From sequence record MK373778.1: DNA of 64,000 nucleotides, one strand, 5' to 3'. This document shows, one piece after another, positions 2,520 through 41,742 of this stretch (within the stretch, counting starts at the first letter, position 1; each line of letters opens with the position of its first letter). The position numbers and the translations under genes were made by a program. The notes beneath the pieces were generated by a model, which did no database searches, was not told the DNA's origin, and worked only from the letters and a program-made list of their open reading frames with translations. Source of the stretch: Escherichia phage vB_EcoM_WFbE185.

Positions 2520-3620
2520 TTACGCTGTGAAGATTTTATCCCACATCGCAACAACTGCATCTCGGTTATACTTCTTCCATACGGCTTCAGCACGTTTAAC
2601 TCGAGCTTCGTATGTGTCAGTGAATTCTAATACAGCTTTTGTGTAAAGCGCAACTACTTCTTTCTTAGGAGTAGAGGAATCAATTTCTACACGCACAGTA
2701 TCTGGGTCGTATTCGAATGTCGCGTGCGGATAATCCTTAAAAACTAACTGAATCACAGGGACACCTTTAGAGATGGCTTCAATAGAACTATTCTCTACCG
2801 TACCCGTGTCAGGACACGTATTGATAAGTGCTTTAGCTGTTTTAAGACGTTCCATGATTTCACTGTGTGGAGCATCAATAATAACAGGATACTTAGCCGG
2901 TGGTGCCCATTTACTAGGACAGTATCCTGCACCATTTTCGCCTAGTGCTTTAATCGCTTCAAGAGCAACATCAGTACGACGCATTTTAGTGTCATAACGT
3001 TGTGCACTAATAATCAGATCAGTCGCCGGAAGAACTTCAGGTTTCTCATTCAAACAAATAACCGGATAATCTTCGGCTTCAAACAATGGATTTGCTCGCC
3101 AATAATCATAATCAATTTTGTCAGTAAGACCTGAAGTCATATAACAATATTTGCGTTCAAATTCACGGAAGGCTTTAGTAGGAGCATAACTCTTACCACC
3201 ATTCTTATGAATTTGAATAGTCTGGTCCCAAATTTGAACAATGCCACGAGATACCGGTTCAAATGGTGTTGCCATAAAATTCTTATGAACTTTAGAGAGA
3301 CCTGCGTCTTTAATTGCCTGAACGGTTAGTTTGGTCGGTTCCATTGTAACAACGAAATCGTACTCATTAATGCCGGCTAGTTCAACAATCTTACGAGCCA
3401 TAGTATAACTCATACCTAGACTGAATTTAGTCAGATGACCAACAGGATGATGATTAACCTTCCAGTCACCAAACGTGTCATTATCAAAGCCGATATAATC
3501 AATATCAGCACCGATGGACACAAGATATTTCAACACATTTAAATGTACTGCTTCAAGACCACCTTGTACACGTTCTGGGTTAAATGGGACTGCGCGAGAT
3601 GGGATAAACATAACTTTCAT
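2520..3620 (-). CDS. GT-B fold (GT4-like) glycosyltransferase, candidate DNA hmC sugar transferase
   Basis: 366 aa; N-terminal MKVMFIPS...GGLE and C-terminal GTVENSSIEAISKGVPVI resemble the GT4 E-x7-E donor-binding motif; occupies the slot where T4 has gene 60/mobA. Confidence 0.6.
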   Translation of the reverse strand: MKVMFIPSRAVPFNPERVQGGLEAVHLNVLKYLVSIGADIDYIGFDNDTFGDWKVNHHPVGHLTKFSLGMSYTMARKIVELAGINEYDFVVTMEPTKLTVQAIKDAGLSKVHKNFMATPFEPVSRGIVQIWDQTIQIHKNGGKSYAPTKAFREFERKYCYMTSGLTDKIDYDYWRANPLFEAEDYPVICLNEKPEVLPATDLIISAQRYDTKMRRTDVALEAIKALGENGAGYCPSKWAPPAKYPVIIDAPHSEIMERLKTAKALINTCPDTGTVENSSIEAISKGVPVIQLVFKDYPHATFEYDPDTVRVEIDSSTPKKEVVALYTKAVLEFTDTYEARVKRAEAVWKKYNRDAVVAMWDKIFTA

Positions 3621-15254: not shown

Positions 15255-15791
15255 TCAGTAACCATTATCCTGGCGTTCAAAGTTGTGTTGGTTTTTCAAG
15301 TAGTAAAGTTTAAAGATTTCTTCAGCGGAAAGACCCAGACCTTGGAACATGTTCAGAACGAAATGGAGAATATCAATCATTTCAAACTTAATTTCCAGTT
15401 GGTCTTCAGGAGACAGTTCATCGATACGACGATTTCGATATTCAGCATGTTGTGCTTTCCATGGCTTCCATACAGAGCTAGCGGCTTTCTCGCCATTGCT
15501 CATACCGCCAAGTGAAGTCAGCAGTTCACGGAATTCATCATCAATATAATCTTTCTGATTACGCAGCCAATCAACAACATCACCAGCAGTAGCCAATTCA
15601 TCAGGATGTTTGTTATGTTCAGGCTTGTCATTTGCCAGACGAACCTGTAAAGATTTCTGCATATCAAGCATTACCTGCAGTGGGTCTTTATCTTCGTGAA
15701 TCAGAGCATTAAAATAAGCTTCTTCTGCTTTATCAACACCAGAAATAAGTTGTGAACATTCGTTAAAGTGCGCCATTATTTTTCCTTTCAA
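15255..15791 (-). CDS. 56: dCTPase-dUTPase (gp56-like nucleotide pyrophosphohydrolase)
   Basis: 178 aa; position between soc and primase as in T4; assignment by position and size. Confidence 0.6.
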   Translation of the reverse strand: MKGKIMAHFNECSQLISGVDKAEEAYFNALIHEDKDPLQVMLDMQKSLQVRLANDKPEHNKHPDELATAGDVVDWLRNQKDYIDDEFRELLTSLGGMSNGEKAASSVWKPWKAQHAEYRNRRIDELSPEDQLEIKFEMIDILHFVLNMFQGLGLSAEEIFKLYYLKNQHNFERQDNGY

Positions 15792-18815: not shown

Positions 18816-19064
18816 TTATTCTTTTTCGCGAATAATAATTACTTGTTGAGGCTGCTGAGCAGATTTCTTTTCGGCAACGATAGACCAAATTAAAGTTCCA
18901 ATCCAACCAATCATCGTCCAGTTAAAGAGTAAAGATACAAAGAAGATTGCTGTTGTGCTTTTTGTGCCACGAATAAGTGCGATTACCCAAGGCAACATGT
19001 AAATGATGATTGAACCAATACCTGCGATTAAAACTGCTACTGAACTAGCTACGAATAATTCCAT
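18816..19064 (-). CDS. small inner-membrane protein (82 aa, two hydrophobic segments)
   Basis: Hydrophobic composition; possibly superinfection-exclusion type, unproven. Confidence 0.5.
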   Translation of the reverse strand: MELFVASSVAVLIAGIGSIIIYMLPWVIALIRGTKSTTAIFFVSLLFNWTMIGWIGTLIWSIVAEKKSAQQPQQVIIIREKE

Positions 19065-23857: not shown

Positions 23858-24406
23858 TTAACGAGCCCATTTGATGATTTCTGTAATCAAACCATTACGT
23901 TCGCTTGCATTAAATCCTATAACTTTGTTAGCACCATCATGATTAAGTAATTGATATGTTTGGATTTTGTTATGAATTGCAAACTCTTCAAAATGTGAAA
24001 TGACTGTATTAAAACCGAATGAAGACAAAGTAATAAGGTCGTCTTCAAAACTTTCAGTCATTTCGTTACGTGTTAAAATAATTGTGAACACATCATGGTT
24101 TTGGCAAAGACGAACATAGTCCTGTTCATAAACGTCAAGAATCGAGTCCGCATCTTGTCGAATACGTCCATAAACCCAGTTACTAATATATCCACGGTCT
24201 AACAGATAAATCTTAGTAGGGTCTAAATAATTCAACATCGTTTCGAAACAGCCAACTTCATTTCGAGACTTAACATCGAAACGCCCATCAACTGTTCGTT
24301 TAGGGAAATCAATCTTTACATATCTTTCACTAATTTCCATTATGTCATTAATGAAAGTTGTTTTACCAGCATTATCTGGGCCATCTACTAAAATAATTTT
24401 AGCCAT
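23858..24406 (-). CDS. P-loop nucleoside/nucleotide kinase-like protein (182 aa)
   Basis: Walker A VDGPDNAGKTT resembling thymidylate-kinase-type P-loops; occupies the T4 segA/beta-gt slot. Confidence 0.5.
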   Translation of the reverse strand: MAKIILVDGPDNAGKTTFINDIMEISERYVKIDFPKRTVDGRFDVKSRNEVGCFETMLNYLDPTKIYLLDRGYISNWVYGRIRQDADSILDVYEQDYVRLCQNHDVFTIILTRNEMTESFEDDLITLSSFGFNTVISHFEEFAIHNKIQTYQLLNHDGANKVIGFNASERNGLITEIIKWAR

Positions 24407-24407
24407 T

Positions 24408-25307
24408 TTATTCCTCGATTACGACATCTTCGTATTTAGGTATATTATACGGCGAAGAAATTAAAGCATTAAAGTAGATGAACTCACCAAGACCTGGATG
24501 GAATACTTCTTCAGGATTTTCGAAATATTGAATTTTCGGACGCCCTTTAAGAATTTGATAGTACTCTGTTTTAGTTGGTTTAAAAATTCGAATCAGCGCT
24601 TCTTCAGGATACTTATTTCTGTCGAAGCTATTATTTGGATCGGTTATATAAAGCGGTTGGCCTAATTGAATTGCACATTCAACCACTTGTTCAAAACGAT
24701 AGCACGGGTCACTAATTCGAAATGGATGAAAAATACCATCTAGATGAATAGTAGCCAAATCACCTACAAGACGCTGCATGATGGAAGGACGTATAACTTT
24801 CTGCGTTACGATAATCTTATTACCATCTGCACCGGCGTTAACCAGCACTTCTTTTTGACGTTCATTCAACACAGTAGTTTGAAGTGAACGATTAACCGAC
24901 AACATGTCGGTTTTTAAGAATTCGTCAATATAAAAACGTGGTTTATTAGGGTCTGCAGTGATATTGAAATTGAATTCTACGTCAAAAGCGCCATCATATC
25001 CAGTGATATCTGTGATTAGAAAATCACAATCATAATAAGCAATTAATGAATCAACCACAAATTCATTTTCAGACCAGAAATATTTACGAGTGTTATACGC
25101 GTTATCTTTATACCATAATGGAACAAACTTAAATTCTGGGAAAAGACGTTCACATTCTCTAATATCAGATGCATTACGTGGATATGTAATCACATCACCT
25201 GGATTAGCACGGTGCAAATGAAGTTGGAAGTTGCCATCCTTAAGGATAGCATACTGTCCAGTTTCATAAGACCGCATACTCAAGATAGGTACGCGGAAAA
25301 TAGCCAT
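24408..25307 (-). CDS. hypothetical protein (299 aa) at the T4 beta-gt position
   Basis: No motif recognised; location between uvsX and gene 42 is where T4 has beta-glucosyltransferase. Confidence 0.5.
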   Translation of the reverse strand: MAIFRVPILSMRSYETGQYAILKDGNFQLHLHRANPGDVITYPRNASDIRECERLFPEFKFVPLWYKDNAYNTRKYFWSENEFVVDSLIAYYDCDFLITDITGYDGAFDVEFNFNITADPNKPRFYIDEFLKTDMLSVNRSLQTTVLNERQKEVLVNAGADGNKIIVTQKVIRPSIMQRLVGDLATIHLDGIFHPFRISDPCYRFEQVVECAIQLGQPLYITDPNNSFDRNKYPEEALIRIFKPTKTEYYQILKGRPKIQYFENPEEVFHPGLGEFIYFNALISSPYNIPKYEDVVIEE

Positions 25308-26023
25308 TAGTCAAGAAATCCTTTAACATAATCAAAATCACGTTCAAACACATGGGCACTTACCATGGTATGAGTATAATCACCAACTTCTACACCACAT
25401 TCGTTAGCGATATAATGAAGTAATTTTCCTTGGAGATAAAAATCCAACTGCATAACAACAGCGCAGTTCTGAGAACGCATATGACAGTGGGTATAAAGCT
25501 TACCATCACGAATATAATAAGTCACTGAGTCAGTACATGGATATTCAAGCGTTTCGTCCGAATCAAGCAAAGCCTGATCAGAACTTTCTAGAATTTGGAA
25601 CACAACTCTTCGAGAGTTAGGCTTCTCTTTAAGTTCTTTTAGAAGAGCTGGTAATTGGGCCGCAATGCGAGGACCGTAGAAAGTGTTGAAGTTCGCAGGC
25701 AAAGCATCTGATTTTGGTTTAGAAATAAATTTAGCGACATTAGGATATGCCTTAAACGCTTCTTCTGCATCAGTACCACCAGAAATCATAAACTTCCAGA
25801 AGTCTTCGGCATATTCATAAGAGATGCGGTTAATACGTGGGTCGGTCATTTTGAATGATGATGGAGTGTCAACAACTACTGTCATAGACCCAATTTCATT
25901 ACAACGTCCAATACGAGAATCAGTTACGAATTCCGGGTTTTCTAAAATTTCACGATTGACTGCTTTAAATGCGGTTTGAAAATCTGCGGCTTTGATATAT
26001 TTCATTGTGTTATGTTTTCCCAT
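25307..26023 (-). CDS. 42: deoxycytidylate 5-hydroxymethyltransferase (thymidylate synthase family)
   Basis: 238 aa; NSRRVVFQ, YPCTDSV (catalytic Cys) and HMRSQN align with T4 gp42/TS motifs. Confidence 0.7.
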   Translation of the reverse strand: MGKHNTMKYIKAADFQTAFKAVNREILENPEFVTDSRIGRCNEIGSMTVVVDTPSSFKMTDPRINRISYEYAEDFWKFMISGGTDAEEAFKAYPNVAKFISKPKSDALPANFNTFYGPRIAAQLPALLKELKEKPNSRRVVFQILESSDQALLDSDETLEYPCTDSVTYYIRDGKLYTHCHMRSQNCAVVMQLDFYLQGKLLHYIANECGVEVGDYTHTMVSAHVFERDFDYVKGFLD

Positions 26024-26042
26024 GTTTACCTCAATACAATTT

Positions 26043-26066
26043 ATTATATACTCAATTCGTAAAGCT
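26043..26066 (-). promoter_or_regulatory. middle-promoter-like element for gene 42 (AGCTTTA, 11 bp, TATAAT)
   Basis: MotA-box-like motif and TATAAT upstream of gene 42 SD GAGG. Confidence 0.35.
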
Positions 26067-26305
26067 TATTTGAATTTCTTGACAATGTTGATATAACGTA
26101 AAGCTTCAGCATCGATACTTCCAAGAACACTATGAAGAAATGCATCAGCGTAGTATTCCAATTGAACAGGTTCTTTAATCACTTTAGCCGCTTTAGTTTC
26201 AAACAGGCCCATCAGGGCCTTTTTAAGAATTTGTTCATTAGTGTTCAGTTTAATAGTCAAAATCTCTTCATTAAGTTGGTGGTTAAAAGTTTTTCTAGAA
26301 ATCAT
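26066..26305 (-). CDS. hypothetical protein (79 aa)
   Basis: ORF in operon context. Confidence 0.4.
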   Translation of the reverse strand: MISRKTFNHQLNEEILTIKLNTNEQILKKALMGLFETKAAKVIKEPVQLEYYADAFLHSVLGSIDAEALRYINIVKKFK

Positions 26306-27477
26306 TCCGGGTACCTCAAAGCGTCATCAGAGTTAGTTATATCAATAATAGATATAGAGTTTTCTGCTAACCCGTTTTTAGATAATTGACGTTTATAATA
26401 TCTTTCACAATATGTACACGTCGTCCCGCAGATTTCATTAGCACAATCGAAATCTGGATGTCTGAACCACCTTTTTTCTAAAAAGCCATCTAACAAAGAG
26501 GTTTCAATATTTACTGTATGTGAAAACTCGGTCTCATTTTCAAGAGTGAAAATAGTCTCTAAAGGCTTCCACAGTTCTAACAAATTACCTTCAAACTTTT
26601 CAGAAGCGTATGCTTCAAGAACTTTCAAAATGTAGTCTGTGCTACCTGTACGTCCTGAAACTTTGAATTGAGTGATACCAATATCATTATAAAGTTTCAA
26701 ATCTTGAGGACGAACAAAACGAGTTCTCAGCCAGTTAAATGGGTCTGTATCACGAGCTTTAATGCAGTGTTGCATTGGATATCCATTTAAGGATTTAGCA
26801 TCATCAGCGGTAACATCAGTACTATGGAAAATATAGCAAGAGTCACGATAGCTACAATGTGTTGTATACCCTTTACCAGCATTAGAACAGAACTCATTTA
26901 CAAGAACTTCAAATATTATATTGTTCTTATTGCAAAACTCTGCTGCACGCTTCAGGAAAGAAACTGAACGGTTCTTATGAATTCCGCAGCAGACCTTTTT
27001 GATATTATACTGGTCATGCAAGTATTTGATTTGAGTTACAGCATCGACATGTAGAATTGTTGAAACTTCAATCTCAATGTCTTTATTGACTTCACGAACA
27101 ATTTCCATAACAACAGGGTTAGCGATAGTAATACGCCATACGCCTATTGACCAAAGATACTGAACATAATCCTGAATAGCTTTCTTCTTCCACTCAACTA
27201 GTTCTCTTTTTGAACCAGGATTTATCGTGTTGAGTGTATAGTTAAAGCAAATACCTAATTCGTTACAACGTTTAACGTAATCTTCTAACATCTTTTTGTC
27301 AACGTCAGGAAGCCTAAAATCAGGTCTGGCTGCTACAAAAGCCATTTCTCTTGTAGAGCCGTATACTTCGTTTATCAAGCTATTAGGATAAGTTTTATTG
27401 AGCTCTACGATTTTATCAAGAAGAGCTAAATCAAAATTCGTTCCAATTTTAAAAGTATTCATTTTTTTGCATCTCAC
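26302..27477 (-). CDS. hypothetical protein (391 aa, Cys-rich), part of the sugar-modification cassette
   Basis: No confident family; Cys cluster FCSNAGKGYTTHCSYRDSC and C-terminal CGTTCTYCERYY; weak resemblance to peptidase-U32-type fold only. Confidence 0.5.
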   Translation of the reverse strand: MRCKKMNTFKIGTNFDLALLDKIVELNKTYPNSLINEVYGSTREMAFVAARPDFRLPDVDKKMLEDYVKRCNELGICFNYTLNTINPGSKRELVEWKKKAIQDYVQYLWSIGVWRITIANPVVMEIVREVNKDIEIEVSTILHVDAVTQIKYLHDQYNIKKVCCGIHKNRSVSFLKRAAEFCNKNNIIFEVLVNEFCSNAGKGYTTHCSYRDSCYIFHSTDVTADDAKSLNGYPMQHCIKARDTDPFNWLRTRFVRPQDLKLYNDIGITQFKVSGRTGSTDYILKVLEAYASEKFEGNLLELWKPLETIFTLENETEFSHTVNIETSLLDGFLEKRWFRHPDFDCANEICGTTCTYCERYYKRQLSKNGLAENSISIIDITNSDDALRYPE

Positions 27478-27518
27478 GTTAATTGATGCGATGGTTTTTG
27501 CAGGTCTTACTTAAATTA

Positions 27519-27920
27519 TTATAGATTCGGTTTATATGATTTAAATGTTTCGAATTCGCCTTTATTCATAAGAGCTTTGAATTCGTCAGGACGCATAGCT
27601 TTGTCGTCGATAATCCAATCATATACTGGTTTATGTGTTAGCAAATTATGGTACTTCAAACCAATGTTTTCCAAGTTCTGAATCAGACTTGGGAGAATGT
27701 CAATTGCTATACGACCAGGACCTACTGACTTCATACCGCGAGCAGTGTAAAGCGTTATGGTATGCCCTGCATCATACAGGGCATTAATGGCAGACACCAT
27801 TTCGACGTCCGGTTTGAAGTTCACGTAATCACGATTGTTATTCCACTCTGTTATACAATCGTCGACATCAAAACAAAGATTAAGCATGTTTTCTACACGG
27901 TGCATTAGATTCGTTCCCAT
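27519..27920 (-). CDS. HAD-superfamily phosphatase (sugar-phosphate phosphatase-like)
   Basis: 133 aa; HAD motif I FDVDDCIT (DxD); small KdsC/GmhB-like size. Confidence 0.55.
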   Translation of the reverse strand: MGTNLMHRVENMLNLCFDVDDCITEWNNNRDYVNFKPDVEMVSAINALYDAGHTITLYTARGMKSVGPGRIAIDILPSLIQNLENIGLKYHNLLTHKPVYDWIIDDKAMRPDEFKALMNKGEFETFKSYKPNL

Positions 27921-29645
27921 TGATGAGTGATATCGCCACCGATTGGACGATAGGAAACACCAGTTTCTTTATCAGTTAGTACCCATTTACCAGGATTTTT
28001 TGTAATCAGAGTAGCCGTTACAGGTTCTGCTACGTCATAACTAATAGAGCCGTCCTGAAGTACACGGCCCATGTTACGTAATTGCTTAGTCAGAAGTTCC
28101 ATGCCTTTATAATATGCGGCTACAGCTTTAAGTGGATTATTCTTGAAATAACCACCTAATGCAATCCAGATAATTGCTACAGCCAAATGATGATATTCAT
28201 TAAACGAACTCAGCTTTCCATATTTGTAAACTAATGGATTGATGTTAATAGTCACATTACAAGTTGTTTCATCAATAGTAAACTGTCCCCAGGTCGGATT
28301 AGCGTTGAATTCATCATAACCTGAAACAGCATAAAGCACTTTAGCTTCATCATACAATTTTGGCCCGTAAATCTTGGTTTCGCCAAAATATCCACGAGGG
28401 TCGATAAACTTGACTTCGCCATTATCAGTAATCATAGTATTACTGAAGTTCGGGTCACCATGAATAACAGAGTACTGTCCCTGAGAACGGTTATGATAAC
28501 GAATAAGGTGTTCTAAAGCTTGTTTCAGCATTGGCTTCAGACGTCCAATCTTAGTGTAGTTCACGTGTGTGATTTTACCAAATGAATCAATCAATGGTTG
28601 AATGCTTTCACAACGATCAATAACTTTCGTATAGAATTCTTTAGTGAAATCACGACGAACAGTTTCAGGACTTACAAAATAAGTGTCTGTGCTGAATTTC
28701 AGTGCATCTAAAATCGCATCAACAATTTGTGGACGAGCAAGACTTGATTTGGATTTAATATATTCAAATGCTGGCTTACCTTTAATGCGTTCCATTTCAA
28801 AGTTATTTTCATTAACAGAAACTAACTGAGGAACTGAATCTGATTTCACTTTCAAATACCACGAAATCTCATCTTTCTGAAGAGCTCGACCCTGTTCGGT
28901 TAATGCGAATTTAGTTACAGTTTCTTCACCAATTTCAACTGCATTAAAACTACGATTAAGTTCACGAACTTCATGGGCTTTTTCAAGTTTAGGCATATCA
29001 CCTAAATCAATTAGATTCATAAGCTCTGATTTATTGAATGCGCTGCCGTAAAGGAATTCTACGAAATCACGTCCTTTGCAGTATTCATGAATTTCCTCAT
29101 CGGTAGAACCCATATAGAATTCCCAGTCTTTGAACTGATAAATTCCTACAACATTACCGCCTGTTTCACCTACATTAGTGATATTTTCACCATCGAAATT
29201 ATACCGACATTCATCACCCTTAACATAGATTGCGTTAACATTCCAAGACCATGAACCAAAATCGGGAATAATATCACACCAGTTAACAATTACGTTATGG
29301 CCGTCTAAATCTTTGTGTAATTTAGCAAGAGCATAAGCAGAACCGTATGCTTCATCAACTGTACGAATAGTCACATTGAACCCTTCTTGCTCACAATAAG
29401 CTCGCTTCATCAACTGTACGAATAGTCACATTGAACCCTTCTTGCTCACAATAAGCTCGAACAGTTTCAGCAAATTTTGAATGAACTACTACAATAATTT
29501 CATCTGCGCCAAGGTCAGAATAAATTGTATACAAATTGCTCAGAATAGTGTCTTGTTTATAGTTAACAAGCACCTTAGGAATATGATGCGTTATTGGATA
29601 TAAACGAGTTGCCAATCCAGCACCAAGAATAACAGCTTTTTTCAT
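27905..29645 (-). pseudogene. bifunctional sugar-1-phosphate nucleotidyltransferase / APH-fold sugar kinase, reading frame broken by a 55-bp tandem duplication
   Basis: N-terminal fragment (29391-29645) has the NTase signature ILGAGLATRL; C-terminal ORF (27905-29413) has kinase motifs HGDPNFSNTMI and FIDPRGYFG; both fragments contain RAYCEQEGFNVTIRTVDEA; deleting one repeat copy restores a 561-aa ORF. Confidence 0.65.
29350..29459. repeat. perfect direct tandem duplication, 2 x 55 bp (cttcatcaactgtacgaatagtcacattgaacccttcttgctcacaataagctcg)
   Basis: Two identical adjacent 55-nt copies at 29350-29404 and 29405-29459; 55 is not a multiple of 3, so the nucleotidyltransferase gene is frameshifted. 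Confidence 0.9.
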
Positions 29646-29686
29646 GTTGAAGTCCTCATTGGTAAGTAGGAGTATTGTACACTATT

Positions 29687-29830
29687 CTAGTTAAAGCATT
29701 CATACTTTGCTTGTAGTCCAATCATAATCCATCCAATTACAAGTGGTGGAATCATTACTGGAGCCGTTAAGCTCCAGTAGATAGTCATGACAAGCATCAA
29801 TAGTAAAAGTCCTATTGTTATTGCTTTCAT
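29687..29830 (-). CDS. small hydrophobic membrane protein (47 aa), not in ORF track
   Basis: MKAITIGLLLLMLVMTIYWSLTAPVMIPPLVIGW...; ATGA start/stop overlap with the SIS gene. Confidence 0.4.
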   Translation of the reverse strand: MKAITIGLLLLMLVMTIYWSLTAPVMIPPLVIGWIMIGLQAKYECFN

Positions 29831-30462
29831 TGTTCGCCTCGTAACATGGCACCTAGTGCACCGCCTGGATGGAACTTAAGGAAATCATTAGAGGTAAATC
29901 CACGTTCAGACGAAAGGTTGATAGCAAACGTATCGATAAGTGCTAACAACAATGTAGTAGACATTGTCGGAGCTAAAGAGTTCTCGTCAACTTCTACCGC
30001 GATACCGGTACAGAACGTATAATCAAAAAGAGCTTCGTATTCTTGTGGAATGTCAGGGTTACAATGTAACAGAATCTGTTTAACCTGAGGACGAATCATA
30101 CGAAGATGTTTAGCAACACCTATCATTTCTTCAGTCTTACCAGAACGGCTGATGTGAACTAATACATCATTAGGTGCAATAAATCCTGCGTCACCATGAG
30201 AATAATGCCCAGTGTTCAAGTACATACTTGGGATACCGAGTGAAGCAAAAGTCTCGGAAGCTTTAGTTGCGATATTAGCGTTCTTACCAACACCTGTAAT
30301 AATTACACGACTTTCATAATTACTCAGTCCAGGGCGACGAAGAGTTTCAAGAATAGCATTATACCGAGCAGGGTTTTGACTAATTACTTTAGCCATAGTG
30401 GCAAGAGATGAAGCTTGTTTTACGATTGCGTCAATAGCGATAGTGATTGGTGTAGTTTTCAT
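29827..30462 (-). CDS. SIS-domain sugar-phosphate isomerase (arabinose-5-phosphate/phosphoheptose isomerase-like)
   Basis: 211 aa; SIS signature VIITGVGKNANIA and SRSGKTEE. Confidence 0.65.
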   Translation of the reverse strand: MKTTPITIAIDAIVKQASSLATMAKVISQNPARYNAILETLRRPGLSNYESRVIITGVGKNANIATKASETFASLGIPSMYLNTGHYSHGDAGFIAPNDVLVHISRSGKTEEMIGVAKHLRMIRPQVKQILLHCNPDIPQEYEALFDYTFCTGIAVEVDENSLAPTMSTTLLLALIDTFAINLSSERGFTSNDFLKFHPGGALGAMLRGEQ

Positions 30463-38610: not shown

Positions 38611-38839
38611 TACACGCTTCAGCCATTTTAAGAATAGAGCCAGGAGTATCGTTGTCCATTATATTAAAGCTAAATTCAATAGCCCAGTCGGTGCAGACAT
38701 GAACTGCTTTAACTTCATTGCCTTCAACGTGTAATGGCTCAATCCAATACTTGATAGTGTTCTCGAATCCATCATCATCTTTAATGTCTATTTCAACTTC
38801 AAGCCCGAGCCCAGCATTGTTAAATTCATCTAAAGTCAT
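38582..38839 (-). CDS. hypothetical acidic protein (85 aa)
   Basis: ORF in operon context. Confidence 0.45.
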   Translation of the reverse strand: MTLDEFNNAGLGLEVEIDIKDDDGFENTIKYWIEPLHVEGNEVKAVHVCTDWAIEFSFNIMDNDTPGSILKMAEACIEDAYNDED

Positions 38840-39855
38840 TGTGTTGCCTCAATATAAAGTTCGTTGGAATATTTGACCAGTGCTTCTCTGTCTTCGTCTG
38901 AGATATCTGGAATCGCGTCAATATATTCTTTAATGATATCTTGAAGTGATTTAATCTCGATTTCCTGGTCGTCATCAGATTCAACATTGTTATCAACTTT
39001 AGAAACCATACGAAGAGAGTGAACTACTTTTTCAAGTTCAGATTCAAACTTAGTCAACTCTGAATCAATTTCTGATACTATAACACGTACGGCTAGATTA
39101 GTATAATCAGAATAATTGATTTTGCCTTTAAACGGATAAGTGATTCGTCGATGCCATGTTGTTTCATTAGGAATAAATTCCATACGTTCAACATCAGTAT
39201 CAAATACCCAGAATCCGCGCGGGTCGTTCTCATCGCCTGCAGTAAGGGTCCATGGTGTCCCAATATATTTGACGTTAGCAGCTTCAGAGATTGTGTGGAA
39301 GTGGCCAGACCAGACTTGTTTATAGGTCTTTAAGAAATCAGGTTCAAGCCCATGAGACTTCATTCCTTTATAGAAATAAAAGCCATTCAGTTCCCAGTGC
39401 CCAACACAATACGCTGCGGAAGAAGTCTTGATGTGCTCTAAGATTTCACCTGTATTTTCTTCACACATCCATGGAACGATATCAATCAGACATCCGTCAA
39501 AATCTACAGTAGTCGGATGCTCGTAAATAGTAAAGTTTTCAAATTGAGTTAACAATTCAGAAACAGTGTTAGGTGTTATTGTATTCTTAAACGCCATGTC
39601 ATGGTTTCCTATCGTGACATGAACGTGAATGCCTGCTTTAGAAATCATATCAACGATTTCACGATTGAATTCCATTGTACGATGTGTTATTGCTTTACGG
39701 ACGTCAAACCAATCACCGTACTGAATCCAAGTTTTAATCCCGTGTTTCTTAGAGTATTCAATTGCTTGTTGAATACCATCACGTTGAATATCTTGAACCC
39801 ATGGGTCGTCTTGTTTGACTCCGATATGGAAGTCGCCTAAGTGCAAAATTTTCAT
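38836..39855 (-). CDS. 47: recombination endonuclease subunit gp47 (Mre11/SbcD-like)
   Basis: 339 aa; phosphoesterase motifs MKILHLGDFHIG, GDWFD, GNHD, GHWE; same length as T4 gp47. Confidence 0.9.
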   Translation of the reverse strand: MKILHLGDFHIGVKQDDPWVQDIQRDGIQQAIEYSKKHGIKTWIQYGDWFDVRKAITHRTMEFNREIVDMISKAGIHVHVTIGNHDMAFKNTITPNTVSELLTQFENFTIYEHPTTVDFDGCLIDIVPWMCEENTGEILEHIKTSSAAYCVGHWELNGFYFYKGMKSHGLEPDFLKTYKQVWSGHFHTISEAANVKYIGTPWTLTAGDENDPRGFWVFDTDVERMEFIPNETTWHRRITYPFKGKINYSDYTNLAVRVIVSEIDSELTKFESELEKVVHSLRMVSKVDNNVESDDDQEIEIKSLQDIIKEYIDAIPDISDEDREALVKYSNELYIEATQ

Positions 39856-39878
39856 ATTATTTCCTCATTAGTTAATTC

Positions 39879-39902
39879 ATTCTATCATCCGTTTATAAAG
39901 CA
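39879..39902 (-). promoter_or_regulatory. MotA-dependent middle-promoter-like element for gene 47 (TGCTTTA, 11 bp, TAGAAT)
   Basis: TTTTTGCTTTA...CGGATGATAGAAT; the CGGATGATAGAAT block is identical to the gene 39 upstream element. Confidence 0.5.
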
Positions 39903-39926
39903 AAAAAGGAACTCCGAAGAGTTCCT
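39902..39926 (-). terminator. intrinsic terminator (AGGAACUC-UUCG-GAGUUCCU + U6)
   Basis: Perfect 8-bp stem with UUCG loop and U-tract; the U-tract merges into the MotA box. Confidence 0.65.
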
Positions 39927-40098
39927 ATCCACATAGTACACCGTACAGAGGCTCATTTGAACTTTTAAATCGAATGGGCTTGTACGTAATAGTTCCTTCG
40001 GCTTTAGCTTTATCATAAGACTCTTTAAAACGTCTCATTCTTTCTGCTTTGCCTTTACGGATTTTATCGAAATTTTCAGAAGTCGGGATGTTCGTCAT
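39925..40098 (-). CDS. small basic protein (57 aa), not in ORF track
   Basis: MTNIPTSENFDKIRKGKAERMRRFKESYDKAK...; stop overlaps the terminator stem. Confidence 0.35.
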   Translation of the reverse strand: MTNIPTSENFDKIRKGKAERMRRFKESYDKAKAEGTITYKPIRFKSSNEPLYGVLCG

Positions 40099-40137
40099 GC
40101 ATAAGCACCTCTCAGAAAATACCTAAATCGATTTCTC

Positions 40138-40359
40138 TTATCGTTTCCACCATTTCTTAACTTGAAATGAATCGACCCACACGAGTTGTTTTGGGTCTGC
40201 CTTTACAATAGGCGGACAAATTTCTGTAATAGAACCGTCGTGATATTCCTTTTCAGAAATTTTAACACAAAGAGGACCTCCCAATTTAAGGGTGAACCCT
40301 GCGTTCAGCTTTAGACGTTTAAACTTTGTTTGAACTAGCGCCATTAATGATGTCCTCAA
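40138..40359 (-). CDS. hypothetical protein (73 aa)
   Basis: ORF. Confidence 0.4.
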   Translation of the reverse strand: MRTSLMALVQTKFKRLKLNAGFTLKLGGPLCVKISEKEYHDGSITEICPPIVKADPKQLVWVDSFQVKKWWKR

Positions 40360-40642
40360 TAGCCTGACGAGTAGTAACCCACTGGATTTTAATTAACTTG
40401 TCATTGTATGGTTGTCGTAGAATATCCCGAGATTTCTTAATAGCATATTCGTAAGCTTCGAAGTTGTTTTGAATTGCTGCTTCTTGAGCATGAGCATAAA
40501 GACGGTTTAGTTCAAAACGATTCTTTTTAAGAATCTTTTCGGATTTTTTACGTGCTTCAGCTTCATTTTTCTTTTGGATTTCTTGTAGCATTTTAGCTAC
40601 TGCATCTTCTGCTTCTTTATTTTCAATAATCTCGGTAGTCAT
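40319..40642 (-). CDS. hypothetical protein (107 aa, coiled-coil-like)
   Basis: ORF. Confidence 0.45.
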   Translation of the reverse strand: MTTEIIENKEAEDAVAKMLQEIQKKNEAEARKKSEKILKKNRFELNRLYAHAQEAAIQNNFEAYEYAIKKSRDILRQPYNDKLIKIQWVTTRQAIEDIINGASSNKV

Positions 40643-40643
40643 A

Positions 40644-40859
40644 TTATCTCATTAAATTAAAATAAAAACGTCCATCCTCTTCAATACAGAACTCATATTC
40701 AACTGGAGTCCCGTTTATCGAAAATGACACGTCATGTGGGTTCAAAGGGTCGATGTCAAAATTAATTTTAAATTCACGACCCAACAGTTTTACCAAATAA
40801 GGGATTGCTTCGTCAAAAGGTTCTTCTAAGTAGTTAGAGATGTCAATTGTCATCCTCAT
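40644..40859 (-). CDS. hypothetical protein (start uncertain)
   Basis: Track ORF overlaps the gene 55 3' end; an internal Met was chosen; no good SD. Confidence 0.3.
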
Positions 40860-41400
40860 ATAAAAAATCCAAACTAGGCGAATCGCTAACAACTTCCTTC
40901 TTTTCAGCCCCAGGAGCTTTATAAGCGGATTCTTCATAATGCGTCATTTTATCGTAGATGTCTTGAATAAATGTTTCATCTACCAACGCTACCATATCAT
41001 CGTCATGACTGTCGTAGACATTATGAACGAAGTAACTATATTTCTTTGCAACTTCCTTACGTTCTTTTTTGATACGTTGGACAAAAGCATTAAAACAAGC
41101 TCGAGTTATGTATGCATGTGGGTTATTGTACTTAGTTTCGTCGAAATTATGAAGTCCCTTAATAGAGGCTTCAATCCCATCTGCAATCATCTCCTGCTTC
41201 CAAGACTGGGTATATCCTGAAAAGTTGAAACGTTTGGACAGGCCTTCGGCGATAAGCATAATTGCTAAACCGATGGTATCATTCTGACGAATAATTTTGT
41301 TTGGGTCTTTATTATTTAAGAGCTCCTTTTTCCACTCGATTATAGCGGCGAGAAGCTCTTTATTATTCACATAGTTATTTTTAGGTTTTTGTTCAGTCAT
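40843..41400 (-). CDS. 55: late-transcription sigma factor gp55
   Basis: [16 protein letters not shown]...[41 protein letters not shown] nearly identical to T4 gp55; start set at ATG Met7 with AAGAGGT SD. Confidence 0.9.
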
Positions 41401-41419
41401 AAGTACCTCTTGGCTCAAT

Positions 41420-41458
41420 TCATAGGTCTATTATATCATAATATTTAGAGACCTATCT
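41420..41458. promoter_or_regulatory. about 35-bp imperfect palindrome (ATAGGTCT...AGACCTAT) containing extended -10 TGa-TATAAT upstream of gene 55
   Basis: 8-bp inverted arms around an AT-rich core; the minus-strand TATAAT lies inside. Confidence 0.4.
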
Positions 41459-41472
41459 TAAAGCACGAGATA

Positions 41473-41742
41473 CTATCGGAGCAAACAATAAGCCTGAAAC
41501 ACTTTTTCCATTAAACGTTTGAACTCATGGATATCGATATAAAGCTCAGTAAGACCGGCATTATAAAGAAAATCTAAAAAGTTCTCATGTGTTTCGTTAT
41601 AGTCGCCTTCGTTTAATTGAGATACATGAGTTTCCCAAAAACCAACACCTTTAACGAATGGAAAATACGTGACTTTCATGTATTCGTCAACATAAAATTC
41701 GCCCAGCTTTTCTTCAGTTATACTGATTCGAGTTAATTTCAT
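41473..41742 (-). CDS. hypothetical protein (89 aa)
   Basis: ORF. Confidence 0.45.
   Translation of the reverse strand: MKLTRISITEEKLGEFYVDEYMKVTYFPFVKGVGFWETHVSQLNEGDYNETHENFLDFLYNAGLTELYIDIHEFKRLMEKVFQAYCLLR

Follow-up and report, generated by a model that had tools for sequence, protein, structure and literature searches.

Gene content between genes 47 and 55 of a Mosigvirus and its predicted arabinosyl-5-hydroxycytosine pathway

In phage T4, the alpha-glucosyltransferase gene (a-gt) resides between genes 47 and 55, the whole layout being 47, 47.1, a-gt, mobB, a-gt.2 to a-gt.5, 55. An earlier note on the DNA of Escherichia phage vB_EcoM_WFbE185 (MK373778.1) rightly placed the T4 gene at this position, reported that a-gt is lacking there in this phage, and took the small ORFs found in the interval to be consistent with the replacement of glucosylation by a different DNA modification chemistry. 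The locus raises two questions, namely whether a-gt is really missing and what its absence can tell about the modification of the viral DNA.

The stretch of DNA that was analyzed, here called the window, covers the first 64 kb of a phage genome that, on sequence grounds, belongs to Mosigvirus, the RB69-like group of T4-type phages. It comprises approximately 38% of a genome of approximately 168 kb, and vB_EcoM_G53, which is 99.9% identical to the window phage over the 1.7-kb stretch compared, served as a proxy for the remainder. When positions 39800-41500 were used as a query, at least 80% of the query was covered by 144 records and at least 95% identity was displayed by 152 records. Mosigvirus entries are among the 30 best records, and in none of these 30 is a glucosyltransferase annotated in the region.

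The reading that we favor, with a probability of about 0.9, is that the window derives from a Mosigvirus without a-gt, in which arabinosyl-5-hydroxycytosine replaces glucosyl-hydroxymethylcytosine and the interval between genes 47 and 55 represents a conserved block in its plain form, devoid of any cassette. Both the absence of a-gt and the replacing chemistry are already known for RB69-like phages. The lack of glucosyltransferases has been explicit since 2018 (PMC6024577), whereas arabinosylated 5-hydroxycytosine was established in RB69 virion DNA by LC-MS/NMR and had been characterized in biochemical and structural terms by 2025-2026 (PMC13326640 and the references therein). The value of the present analysis is in annotation, as the window can be labeled as Mosigvirus DNA with the Afh/arabinosyl-5hoC pathway. 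Chemistry and enzyme activities are taken throughout from the literature on RB69, HY126 and Bas46/47.

Small genes between genes 47 and 55

All genes of the interval and its flanks are on the minus strand. The downstream boundary is gene 47 (38836..39855), encoding the 339-aa Mre11/SbcD-like recombination nuclease subunit (Pfam Metallophos), which is 76% identical to T4 gp47 and 99% to RB69 gp47. The upstream boundary is gene 55 (40843..41400), encoding the 185-aa late sigma factor, 91% identical to T4 gp55. Between them there are four ORFs and not three, as had been counted in the earlier note. The ORF that had been missed is the a-gt.2 orthologue (39925..40098, 57 aa), a DUF5486 protein (Pfam 4.5e-28, PHROG 3e-33) sharing 76% identity with T4 a-gt.2 and 95% with that of RB69. 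One phrog labels a-gt.2 as a 'head maturation protease'; this match spans 34 residues and looks like a mis-annotation.

The next ORF, previously described as 73 aa long, is the a-gt.3 orthologue (40138..40344; phrog_1648, 1.6e-34; 71% identity with T4, 100% with RB69). It is a real gene, but 73 aa is the length of the form extended to a TTG at 40359, whereas the ATG at 40344, which is the start annotated in relatives, gives a product of 68 aa (67 aa in T4). The gene overlaps the end of a-gt.4 by 26 nt. The 107-aa ORF was described correctly and is the a-gt.4 orthologue (40319..40642; DUF2654, Pfam 1e-27; 58% identity with T4, 100% with RB69). The ORF of about 70 aa is the a-gt.5 orthologue (40644..40859, 71 aa; DUF5491, Pfam 1.4e-12; 47% identity with T4, 100% with RB69). 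Its start overlaps the stop codon of gene 55, and in relatives it is annotated either at 40859 (71 aa) or at 40853 (69 aa). The approximate length given for it holds, but not the end at 40937, which is the most upstream in-frame ATG of a 97-aa ORF reaching 95 nt into gene 55; the DUF5491 match begins at residue 29 of this longer ORF.

Judging from the PHROG (E-values from 1e-24 to 7e-37) and Pfam matches and from the 47-76% identity to the T4 counterparts, the four small ORFs are real genes and not chance ORFs. Their order between genes 55 and 47 is conserved in T4, RB69 and most of the 33 related loci that were compared. In RB69 and other Mosigvirus genomes (NC_004928; Bas46/Bas47, HY126) the order 47, a-gt.2, a-gt.3, a-gt.4, a-gt.5, 55 is the same as here, without a-gt, and the proteins encoded in the interval share 95-100% identity between RB69 and the window. 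Of the small genes, a-gt.4 is conserved most widely, with a homologue even in 245-kb KVP40-size contigs. In terms of function, Pfam assigns only DUFs to the products of a-gt.2 to a-gt.5, their PHROGs are classed as unknown, and a PDB sequence search with a-gt.3, a-gt.4 and a-gt.5 returned nothing below E=0.7. The literature found on their function consists of a listing of a-gt.4 as an ORF of unknown function conserved in T4 and five T4-like genomes (PMC1524935).

The idea that the small ORFs signal another chemistry is right in that the chemistry differs, but a-gt.3, a-gt.4 and a-gt.5 are also found in T4 and are uninformative in this respect. The evidence for another chemistry lies not in the 47-55 interval but at the b-gt/gene-42 slot and at 2520-3620.

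Glucosyltransferase searches and arabinosylation genes

The absence of a-gt between genes 47 and 55 was borne out by all searches. In the window, T4 a-gt had a best tblastn match of E=2.5, and there is no gene between a-gt.2 and 47, the T4 a-gt position, where the two genes are 69 nt apart. A profile made of three a-gt sequences (hmmsearch --max) gave a best E-value of 0.34 in the window and the G53 remainder, the profile and phmmer searches being run on every stop-to-stop segment of 50 aa or more in both. The best matches of T4 b-gt had E=1.8 (tblastn) and, in these segments, E=3.2 (phmmer --max), and those of T6 ba-gt (ggt) in the window and the G53 remainder had E=2.4 (tblastn) and E=0.79 (phmmer). 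The a-gt of Erwinia phage Cronus, used as a positive control, matched Pfam AGT PF11440 with 1.7e-131. At the sequence level, the absence of a-gt, b-gt and ba-gt homologues from the window and the G53 remainder is confirmed, and no a-gt or b-gt homologue located elsewhere, which was the observation named in the earlier note as speaking against its claim, was encountered there.

What the window does contain is a set of genes corresponding to the complete arabinosyl-5-hydroxycytosine gene set of RB69, in the same positions and with 94-100% identity, with Pfam domains in agreement and, for two of the proteins, with structures already solved for nearly identical counterparts. Most of them occupy the b-gt/gene-42 slot (23858-30462) between uvsX and the DNA polymerase gene, and one is located by rIIA (2520-3620). 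Thus, the replacement of glucosylation by another modification chemistry is supported. According to the scheme established in this group of phages, cytosine is replaced by 5-hydroxycytosine, dCMP being converted to 5hodCMP via a flavin-dependent thymidylate-synthase homologue. Two GT-B arabinosyltransferases then add one or two arabinofuranose residues from UDP-arabinose, and in the window phage the dCTPase of gene 56 (15255..15776, minus strand; 97% identical to RB69 gp56) would remove dCTP so that the modified nucleotide alone is incorporated.

The genes of the slot are all on the minus strand. The putative 5-hydroxy-dCMP synthase (25307..26023), encoded at the T4 gene 42 position, is a thymidylate-synthase homologue that is only 25% identical to T4 gp42 but 100% identical to RB69 gp48, for which 5hodCMP synthesis has been shown experimentally (PMC13326640); it matches PDB entries 9iqc/9ir2 at 4.5e-162. 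Adjoining it, at the T4 b-gt position, is the gene of the putative first arabinosyltransferase (24408..25307), a homologue of RB69 gp46:47 with 98-99% identity to p046 and p047. In the window it is a single intact ORF of 299 aa, whereas in the RB69 record it is split. The 299-aa protein has no sequence similarity to b-gt. Its AlphaFold2 model (pLDDT 95.4) was matched by Foldseek to GT-B glycosyltransferases (MshA 3c4q and BH4 glucosyltransferase 9v0w; E ~1e-6, TM 0.5-0.63), T4 AGT and BGT being absent from the top 50 matches.

The putative second arabinosyltransferase (2520..3620, minus strand) is a GT4-like GT-B protein of 366 aa, homologous to RB69 ORF003c/gp3 and 99% identical to RB69 p003. 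The PDB sequence search worked for this protein and not for the 299-aa one, with a match to 9iqz/9ir0 'Glycosyltransferase subfamily 4-like' at 2.6e-248, and Pfam gave no match for either. On the model and the matches, both putative arabinosyltransferases are GT-B enzymes, i.e., of the same broad fold class as the a-gt and b-gt products but outside those families; the sugar specificity predicted for the gp46:47- and gp3-type proteins is taken from the literature. T4 AGT and BGT are GT-B nucleotide-sugar transferases acting on modified cytosine, and the two arabinosyltransferases of the window, likewise of the GT-B fold, are presumed to act on a modified cytosine too (PMC6024577), although sequence homology between the T4 and window enzymes is not detectable. 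The T4 enzymes transfer glucose to hmC, whereas the arabinosyltransferases would transfer arabinofuranose to 5-hydroxycytosine (PMC13326640).

The remaining genes of the slot encode a thymidylate-kinase-like protein (RB69 gp45 homologue; 23858..24406; 98% identical to p045), predicted to be a nucleotide kinase (PMC13326640, Table 1), a Peptidase-U32-family protein (RB69 gp50 homologue; 26302..27477; 99% identical to p050; Pfam Peptidase_U32 7.5e-11) and a HAD-like protein (RB69 gp51 homologue, HY126 AfhF analogue; 27519..27920; 98% identical to p051), which would be a sugar phosphatase (PMC13326640). They are followed by the gene of a putative bifunctional arabinose-phosphate kinase/UDP-arabinose pyrophosphorylase (RB69 gp52:53, AfhE analogue; 27905..29645; 99-100% identical to p052/p053) and by that of a putative arabinose-5-phosphate isomerase (RB69 gp55 homologue; 29827..30462; 97% identical to p055; Pfam SIS 8.2e-10).

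The junction between a-gt.2 and gene 47 in T4-like lineages

Related genomes were compared, as proposed in the earlier note. Among the 33 related loci, those with a-gt in the slot are all from T4-type phages or Erwinia phage Cronus, and the block of a-gt.5, a-gt.4 and a-gt.3 is nearly universal. Otherwise the slot holds 47.1, GIY-YIG/NUMOD3 endonuclease-like ORFs, a 110-aa ORF or a Zn-ribbon ORF, or is empty. Within this sample, T4-like phages commonly have no a-gt at the slot, and some of the lineages lacking it are reported to glucosylate with b-gt and ba-gt homologues (PMC6024577). Since a-gt is commonly missing from the slot even in glucosylating lineages, the empty slot alone would not justify inferring another chemistry.

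In the window, the 69 nt between a-gt.2 and gene 47 (39856-39924) are taken up by a hairpin and a promoter. These form a composite terminator/promoter module (39879..39926, minus strand), delineated by a terminator scan, reading of the sequence and comparison with T4 and eight other lineages. Directly 3' of the a-gt.2 stop codon there is a hairpin, AGGAACTC-TTCG-GAGTTCCT (39926-39907), followed by a T-run, both detected in the window by the terminator scan. The promoter was read manually and consists of a MotA-box TGCTTTA (39902-39896), an 11-nt spacer and the -10 sequence TAGAAT (39884-39879); the RBS GAGGA and the gene 47 ATG (39855) come after the module. A generic sigma-70 promoter scan did not flag the predicted promoter upstream of gene 47. 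G53 has an annotated gene for MotA, and we infer that gene 47 is preceded by a MotA-dependent middle promoter. The hairpin, MotA box and -10 sequence are conserved downstream of a-gt.2 in eight lineages in which the downstream genes differ.

T4 shares with the window the flanking genes, the four small ORFs and the same hairpin and MotA-box module after a-gt.2. Homology covers a-gt.2, the hairpin and the MotA box (window 40096-39892, corresponding to T4 38904-38702, 79%) and starts again at the ATG of gene 47. Between the module and gene 47, T4 has an additional block of approximately 2.25 kb that the window lacks. This block, made up of mobB, a-gt, 47.1 and, after a-gt, another hairpin/MotA-like module, is located at one single, variable junction just downstream of the conserved module. 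A comparable arrangement may be seen in the PeSL-type composite terminator/promoter cassettes of T4-like phages, in which a short stem-loop and a promoter motif are found at the exact boundary of exchanged unrelated cassettes (Arbiol et al., 2010, PMC2839356; Comeau et al., 2014, PMC4122927). The PeSL promoter is, however, an early one, whereas a MotA-box middle promoter is predicted in the window, and recombination at the window module is our proposal. The conserved block consists of gene 55, a-gt.5, a-gt.4, a-gt.3, a-gt.2, the hairpin and predicted MotA-box promoter module, and gene 47. In T4-type phages a facultative cassette (a-gt with or without the homing endonuclease gene mobB, 47.1 and the module in a further copy) is found directly after the module, and other lineages have different cassettes or nothing at this junction. 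Going by the distribution across lineages, we infer that the T4 lineage acquired a-gt through recombination at this terminator/promoter module. It is also conceivable, though doubtful, that the conserved module serves as a dedicated exchange site by which DNA glycosylation genes move between T4-like lineages.

Change in the opposite direction would be secondary loss of an ancestral a-gt via homologous recombination between hairpin/MotA-box modules in direct repeat, such as the two similar ones that flank mobB and a-gt in T4. Just one module would remain after such an event, and indeed there is one in the window. Composite terminator/promoter motifs are also documented drivers of indels in T4-like phages (PMC2839356, PMC4122927). 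Such a loss is nevertheless unlikely, as a-gt is found in the slot in two lineages only (T4-type and Cronus), is absent from most of those sampled and the slot has unrelated cassettes in others, which makes gain more parsimonious; also, the 69-nt spacer of the window has no remnant of a-gt. It is highly improbable that a glucosyltransferase is encoded in the approximately 100 kb outside the window and that the phage still glucosylates its DNA. The window is indeed only some 38% of the genome, and residues 18-86 of T4 a-gt gave a weak tblastn match to a 200-aa ORF of G53 (E=0.042). This ORF was rejected as an a-gt candidate, however, with no Pfam family and no support from the a-gt profile or phmmer, and a published BLASTP search of RB69 found no homologues of a-gt, b-gt or ba-gt (PMC6024577). 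Moreover, the hmC-forming gp42 is replaced by the 5hodCMP synthase, and therefore the acceptor of glucose would not be made. A novel DNA modification function of the small ORFs, substituting for a-gt, is hardly conceivable. They are in the neighborhood and none of them has a known function, but T4 carries all four alongside a-gt, they are conserved in lineages with and without it, including most of the T4-like phages that lack it, and a-gt.4 is kept in T4 and in 5/5 T4-like genomes (PMC1524935) as well as in the KVP40-size contigs. The proteins are also short (57-107 aa), with no enzyme-like domain. On these grounds the small ORFs are ruled out as replacements of a-gt. Their presence whatever the type of DNA modification speaks against any connection with glycosylation, and their 'a-gt.N' names are to be taken as positional only.

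A tandem duplication in the UDP-arabinose gene

The arabinosylation genes of the window differ from those of RB69 and other Mosigvirus genomes by a unique feature, a perfect 55-bp tandem duplication of 2.0 copies (29349..29459, TRF) in the gp52:53 gene. It frameshifts the kinase/pyrophosphorylase gene into ORF-N (29391-29645, 84 aa), which matches Pfam NTP_transferase, and ORF-C (27905-29413, 502 aa), which has kinase-like matches. In silico deletion of one repeat copy yields an ORF of 561 aa, identical to the Bas47 protein at 556/561 positions. The repeat unit is present in a single copy in RB69, AlbertHofmann, G53, Bas47 and the 12 best of 153 related records, and the 31-mer spanning the duplication junction is absent from IMG/VR. 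With this frameshift in a gene for UDP-arabinose synthesis, there is no guarantee that the present isolate arabinosylates its DNA fully.

The isolate might be a mutant of natural or laboratory origin, the duplication inactivating the kinase/pyrophosphorylase, so that its DNA would be arabinosylated less or not at all and would contain bare or under-glycosylated 5-hydroxycytosine. A perfect duplication that splits the gene and is absent from the relatives and from IMG/VR would fit such a mutant, but a perfect tandem duplication in one record also resembles an assembly or sequencing artefact, and the RB69 reference itself had sequencing-error frameshifts in gp52:53 and gp46:47 (PMC13326640). In addition, ORF-N and ORF-C overlap by 19 residues, and the fragments might complement each other. 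Altogether, we regard a mutant isolate as quite improbable. The fuller claim, that the duplication is real and that this Mosigvirus is viable in spite of crippled arabinosylation, its packaged DNA containing 5-hydroxycytosine in bare or under-glycosylated form, is decidedly doubtful. If true, the isolate would be a natural probe of the contributions of the sugar and of the hydroxyl to anti-defence. Before the genome is used for predictions of sensitivity to modification-dependent defence systems, the frameshift in this gene should be verified. The neighboring isomerase and phosphatase genes are intact, and the bifunctional gene is present in its frameshifted form.

Genes between 47 and 55

In the part of the window between genes 47 and 55 every gene lies on the minus strand. 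Between gene 55 (40843-41400; 91% identity to its T4 counterpart) and gene 47 (38836-39855; 76%), four small genes follow in the order of transcription: a-gt.5 (71 aa, 40644-40859, DUF5491), a-gt.4 (107 aa, 40319-40642, DUF2654), a-gt.3 (68 aa, 40138-40344, phrog_1648) and a-gt.2 (57 aa, 39925-40098, DUF5486). Their products are 47, 58, 71 and 76% identical to those of T4, respectively, and 95-100% identical to those of the Mosigvirus phage RB69 (NC_004928); the family matches have E-values from 1e-12 to 7e-37. The interval holds no ORF of glucosyltransferase size, which bears out the earlier note in that the T4 alpha-glucosyltransferase gene (a-gt) is missing from it. The note had counted three small ORFs instead of four. 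Its 107-aa ORF stands, whereas the 73-aa one is a TTG-extended a-gt.3, and the end placed at 40937 is an upstream ATG within gene 55, the conserved start of a-gt.5 being 40859. The small ORFs owe the a-gt in their names to position and are unconnected to glycosylation; PMC1524935 lists a-gt.4 as one of the ORFs without a known function that are conserved in T4 and five T4-like genomes.

The T4 order is 47, 47.1, a-gt, mobB, a-gt.2, a-gt.3, a-gt.4, a-gt.5, 55; as it includes a-gt.2 to a-gt.5, the window lacks only 47.1, a-gt and mobB. RB69 has the window's order (47, a-gt.2, a-gt.3, a-gt.4, a-gt.5, 55), and both records start with rIIA. Escherichia phage vB_EcoM_G53 shares 99.9% identity with the window at 39800-41500; this stretch has matches of at least 95% identity in 152 records, and 144 records cover 80% or more of it. 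Mosigvirus entries are among the best records listed, none of which carries a glucosyltransferase annotation at the equivalent position. Over 25 kb the window is approximately 98% identical to JK45, mar005P1 and the BASEL phage AlbertHofmann (Bas47). Shigella phage JK45 (NC_054940) is a Tequatrovirus in the record taxonomy, yet besides this similarity to a Mosigvirus-type window it has the same a-gt-less layout and the arabinosylation cluster.

A glucosyltransferase elsewhere was sought in the window together with the remainder of G53 (64000-167834), using tblastn with T4 a-gt, T4 b-gt (beta-glucosyltransferase), Cronus a-gt and T6 ba-gt (beta-glucosyl-HMC-alpha-glucosyltransferase), phmmer --max with b-gt and ba-gt, and an HMM of three a-gt sequences. 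No homologue of the three enzymes was found in this target, the best match having E=0.04. That match, a 200-aa ORF without a Pfam family, was rejected as a glucosyltransferase. Published BLASTP results for RB69 agree with the absence of such homologues (PMC6024577, PMC13326640).

The junction between a-gt.2 and gene 47

The junction is a clean one, the stop codon of a-gt.2 passing, on the minus strand, directly into a hairpin, AGGAACTC-TTCG-GAGTTCCT (39926-39907), followed by a T-run. Next come TGCTTTA (39902-39896), a fit to the T4 MotA-box consensus, and, after an 11-nt spacer, TAGAAT (39884-39879); beyond the module lie a ribosome-binding site (GAGGA) and the ATG of gene 47. From its sequence we read this as a putative MotA-dependent promoter of gene 47; G53 carries an annotated MotA gene. 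Nucleotide homology to T4 extends from a-gt.2 across the hairpin and the MotA box (window 40096-39892, T4 38904-38702, 79%) and restarts two bases ahead of the gene 47 ATG. T4 has this kind of module twice, after a-gt.2 (before mobB) and after a-gt (before 47.1), and thus the T4-specific block of approximately 2.25 kb is bracketed by repeated composite terminator/promoter modules. In T4-like phages, motifs of this type reportedly mediate the insertion and deletion of cassettes (PMC2839356, PMC4122927).

The slot was compared across 33 IMG/VR loci with gp55 relatives at 49-100% identity, in which the T4 and RB69 genes were located. Nearly every lineage has the a-gt.5/a-gt.4/a-gt.3 block, down to a gp55 identity of 62%, and a-gt.4 homologues reach even contigs of KVP40 size (245 kb). 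The gene a-gt itself is missing from this slot in most of the lineages sampled; apart from T4-type loci, the one lineage to carry it between a-gt.2 and 47 is that of Erwinia phage Cronus, whose a-gt is 56% identical to that of T4 and matches Pfam AGT at E=1.7e-131. In the other loci the slot is empty or contains 47.1 alone, an ORF resembling a GIY-YIG/NUMOD3 endonuclease, a 110-aa ORF or a Zn-ribbon ORF. In the eight lineages compared, the hairpin, TGCTTTA and -10 module is kept directly after a-gt.2, whatever comes next. The common state is thus the cassette-free one. In the window's lineage, a-gt could also have been removed by recombination between the repeated modules, but gain in the T4 lineage is more parsimonious than such a loss.

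The hairpin after T4 a-gt (AAAGGGCTTCGGCCCTTT; locus L003, 16590-16640) is identical to the one after a-gt.2 in L026 (8531-8612) and in Cronus (L036, 8775-8858), and differs from that after T4 a-gt.2, which hints that the T4 arrangement may have arisen by recombination between modules of different lineages. In L024 (8600-9381), gene 47 has a 224-aa NUMOD3/GIY-YIG-like endonuclease ORF immediately upstream and, ahead of that, a 49-aa ORF repeating the gp47 N-terminus (MKIIQSGDWHLGVKNDD...), an arrangement that resembles the trace left by a homing endonuclease inserting at the start of gene 47.

RB69-type genes for arabinosyl-5-hydroxycytosine

The T4 gp42 query finds just one thymidylate-synthase homologue (25307-26023; 25% identity), which is 100% identical to RB69 gp48 and near-identical to the proteins of the solved structures 9iqc and 9ir2. 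Experiments with RB69 gp48 showed that it makes 5-hydroxy-dCMP from dCMP, using O2 and a flavin cofactor (PMC13326640). The window's gp48 gene is surrounded by homologues of other RB69 pathway genes, all located between uvsX and the DNA polymerase gene: gp45 (kinase), gp46:47 (24408-25307), gp50 (peptidase-U32 family, 26302-27477), gp51 (phosphatase), gp52:53 (kinase/nucleotidyltransferase, 27905-29645, minus strand) and RB69 gp55 (arabinose-5-phosphate isomerase). A dCTPase is encoded at 15255-15776, and the ORF003c/gp3 homologue (2520-3620) is essentially identical to the crystallised GT4-like glycosyltransferase 9iqz (E=2.6e-248). In RB69 DNA, cytosine is replaced by 5-hydroxycytosine in mono- and di-arabinosylated form, and the same has been reported for Bas46, Bas47 and HY126 (PMC13326640). 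Thus, the real site of replacement is the b-gt/gene-42 slot and not the a-gt slot. The proposal of the earlier note that a different modification chemistry replaces glucosylation is right, the evidence being these RB69-type genes outside the interval it had flagged; overall, its observation was essentially correct, the number of ORFs and their boundaries excepted. Both the absence of a-gt and the replacing chemistry are already known, and since everything has been published, the finding is an ordinary one.

For the 299-aa gp46:47 homologue, sequence searches of Pfam and the PDB gave no match. Its model, built from 62 homologues (pLDDT 95.4), retrieved GT-B glycosyltransferases in Foldseek (MshA, tetrahydrobiopterin glucosyltransferase; E approximately 1e-6, TM 0.5-0.63), consistent with a putative arabinosyltransferase; T4 AGT and BGT were not among the top 50 matches. 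The gene is one intact ORF in the window and two ORFs in the RB69 reference record, a split ascribed to sequencing error (2026 NAR paper, PMC13326640).

The U32-family protein sits inside the modification cluster. This family is known for enzymes that hydroxylate RNA bases and ubiquinone independently of O2; the putative role entered in the literature for RB69 gp50 is 'sugar or heterocycle reductase'. The superinfection immunity gene imm (18819-19064) is found close to sp, upstream of gene 41, whereas T4 imm adjoins gene 42; thus the whole T4 42-imm neighbourhood is rearranged around the arabinosylation cluster.

The gp52:53 gene (AfhE-like), a bifunctional arabinose-phosphate kinase/UDP-arabinose pyrophosphorylase gene, is frameshifted by a perfect 55-bp tandem duplication (29349-29459) that splits it into an 84-aa N-terminal and a 502-aa C-terminal ORF. 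RB69, Bas47 and G53 have a single copy, the best related records listed lack the second one, and the junction sequence was not found in IMG/VR. Either the duplication arose in assembly, as an artefact, or the allele is real and has lost its function in UDP-arabinose synthesis; in silico removal of one copy yields a 561-aa ORF, identical to the Bas47 protein at 556 of 561 positions.
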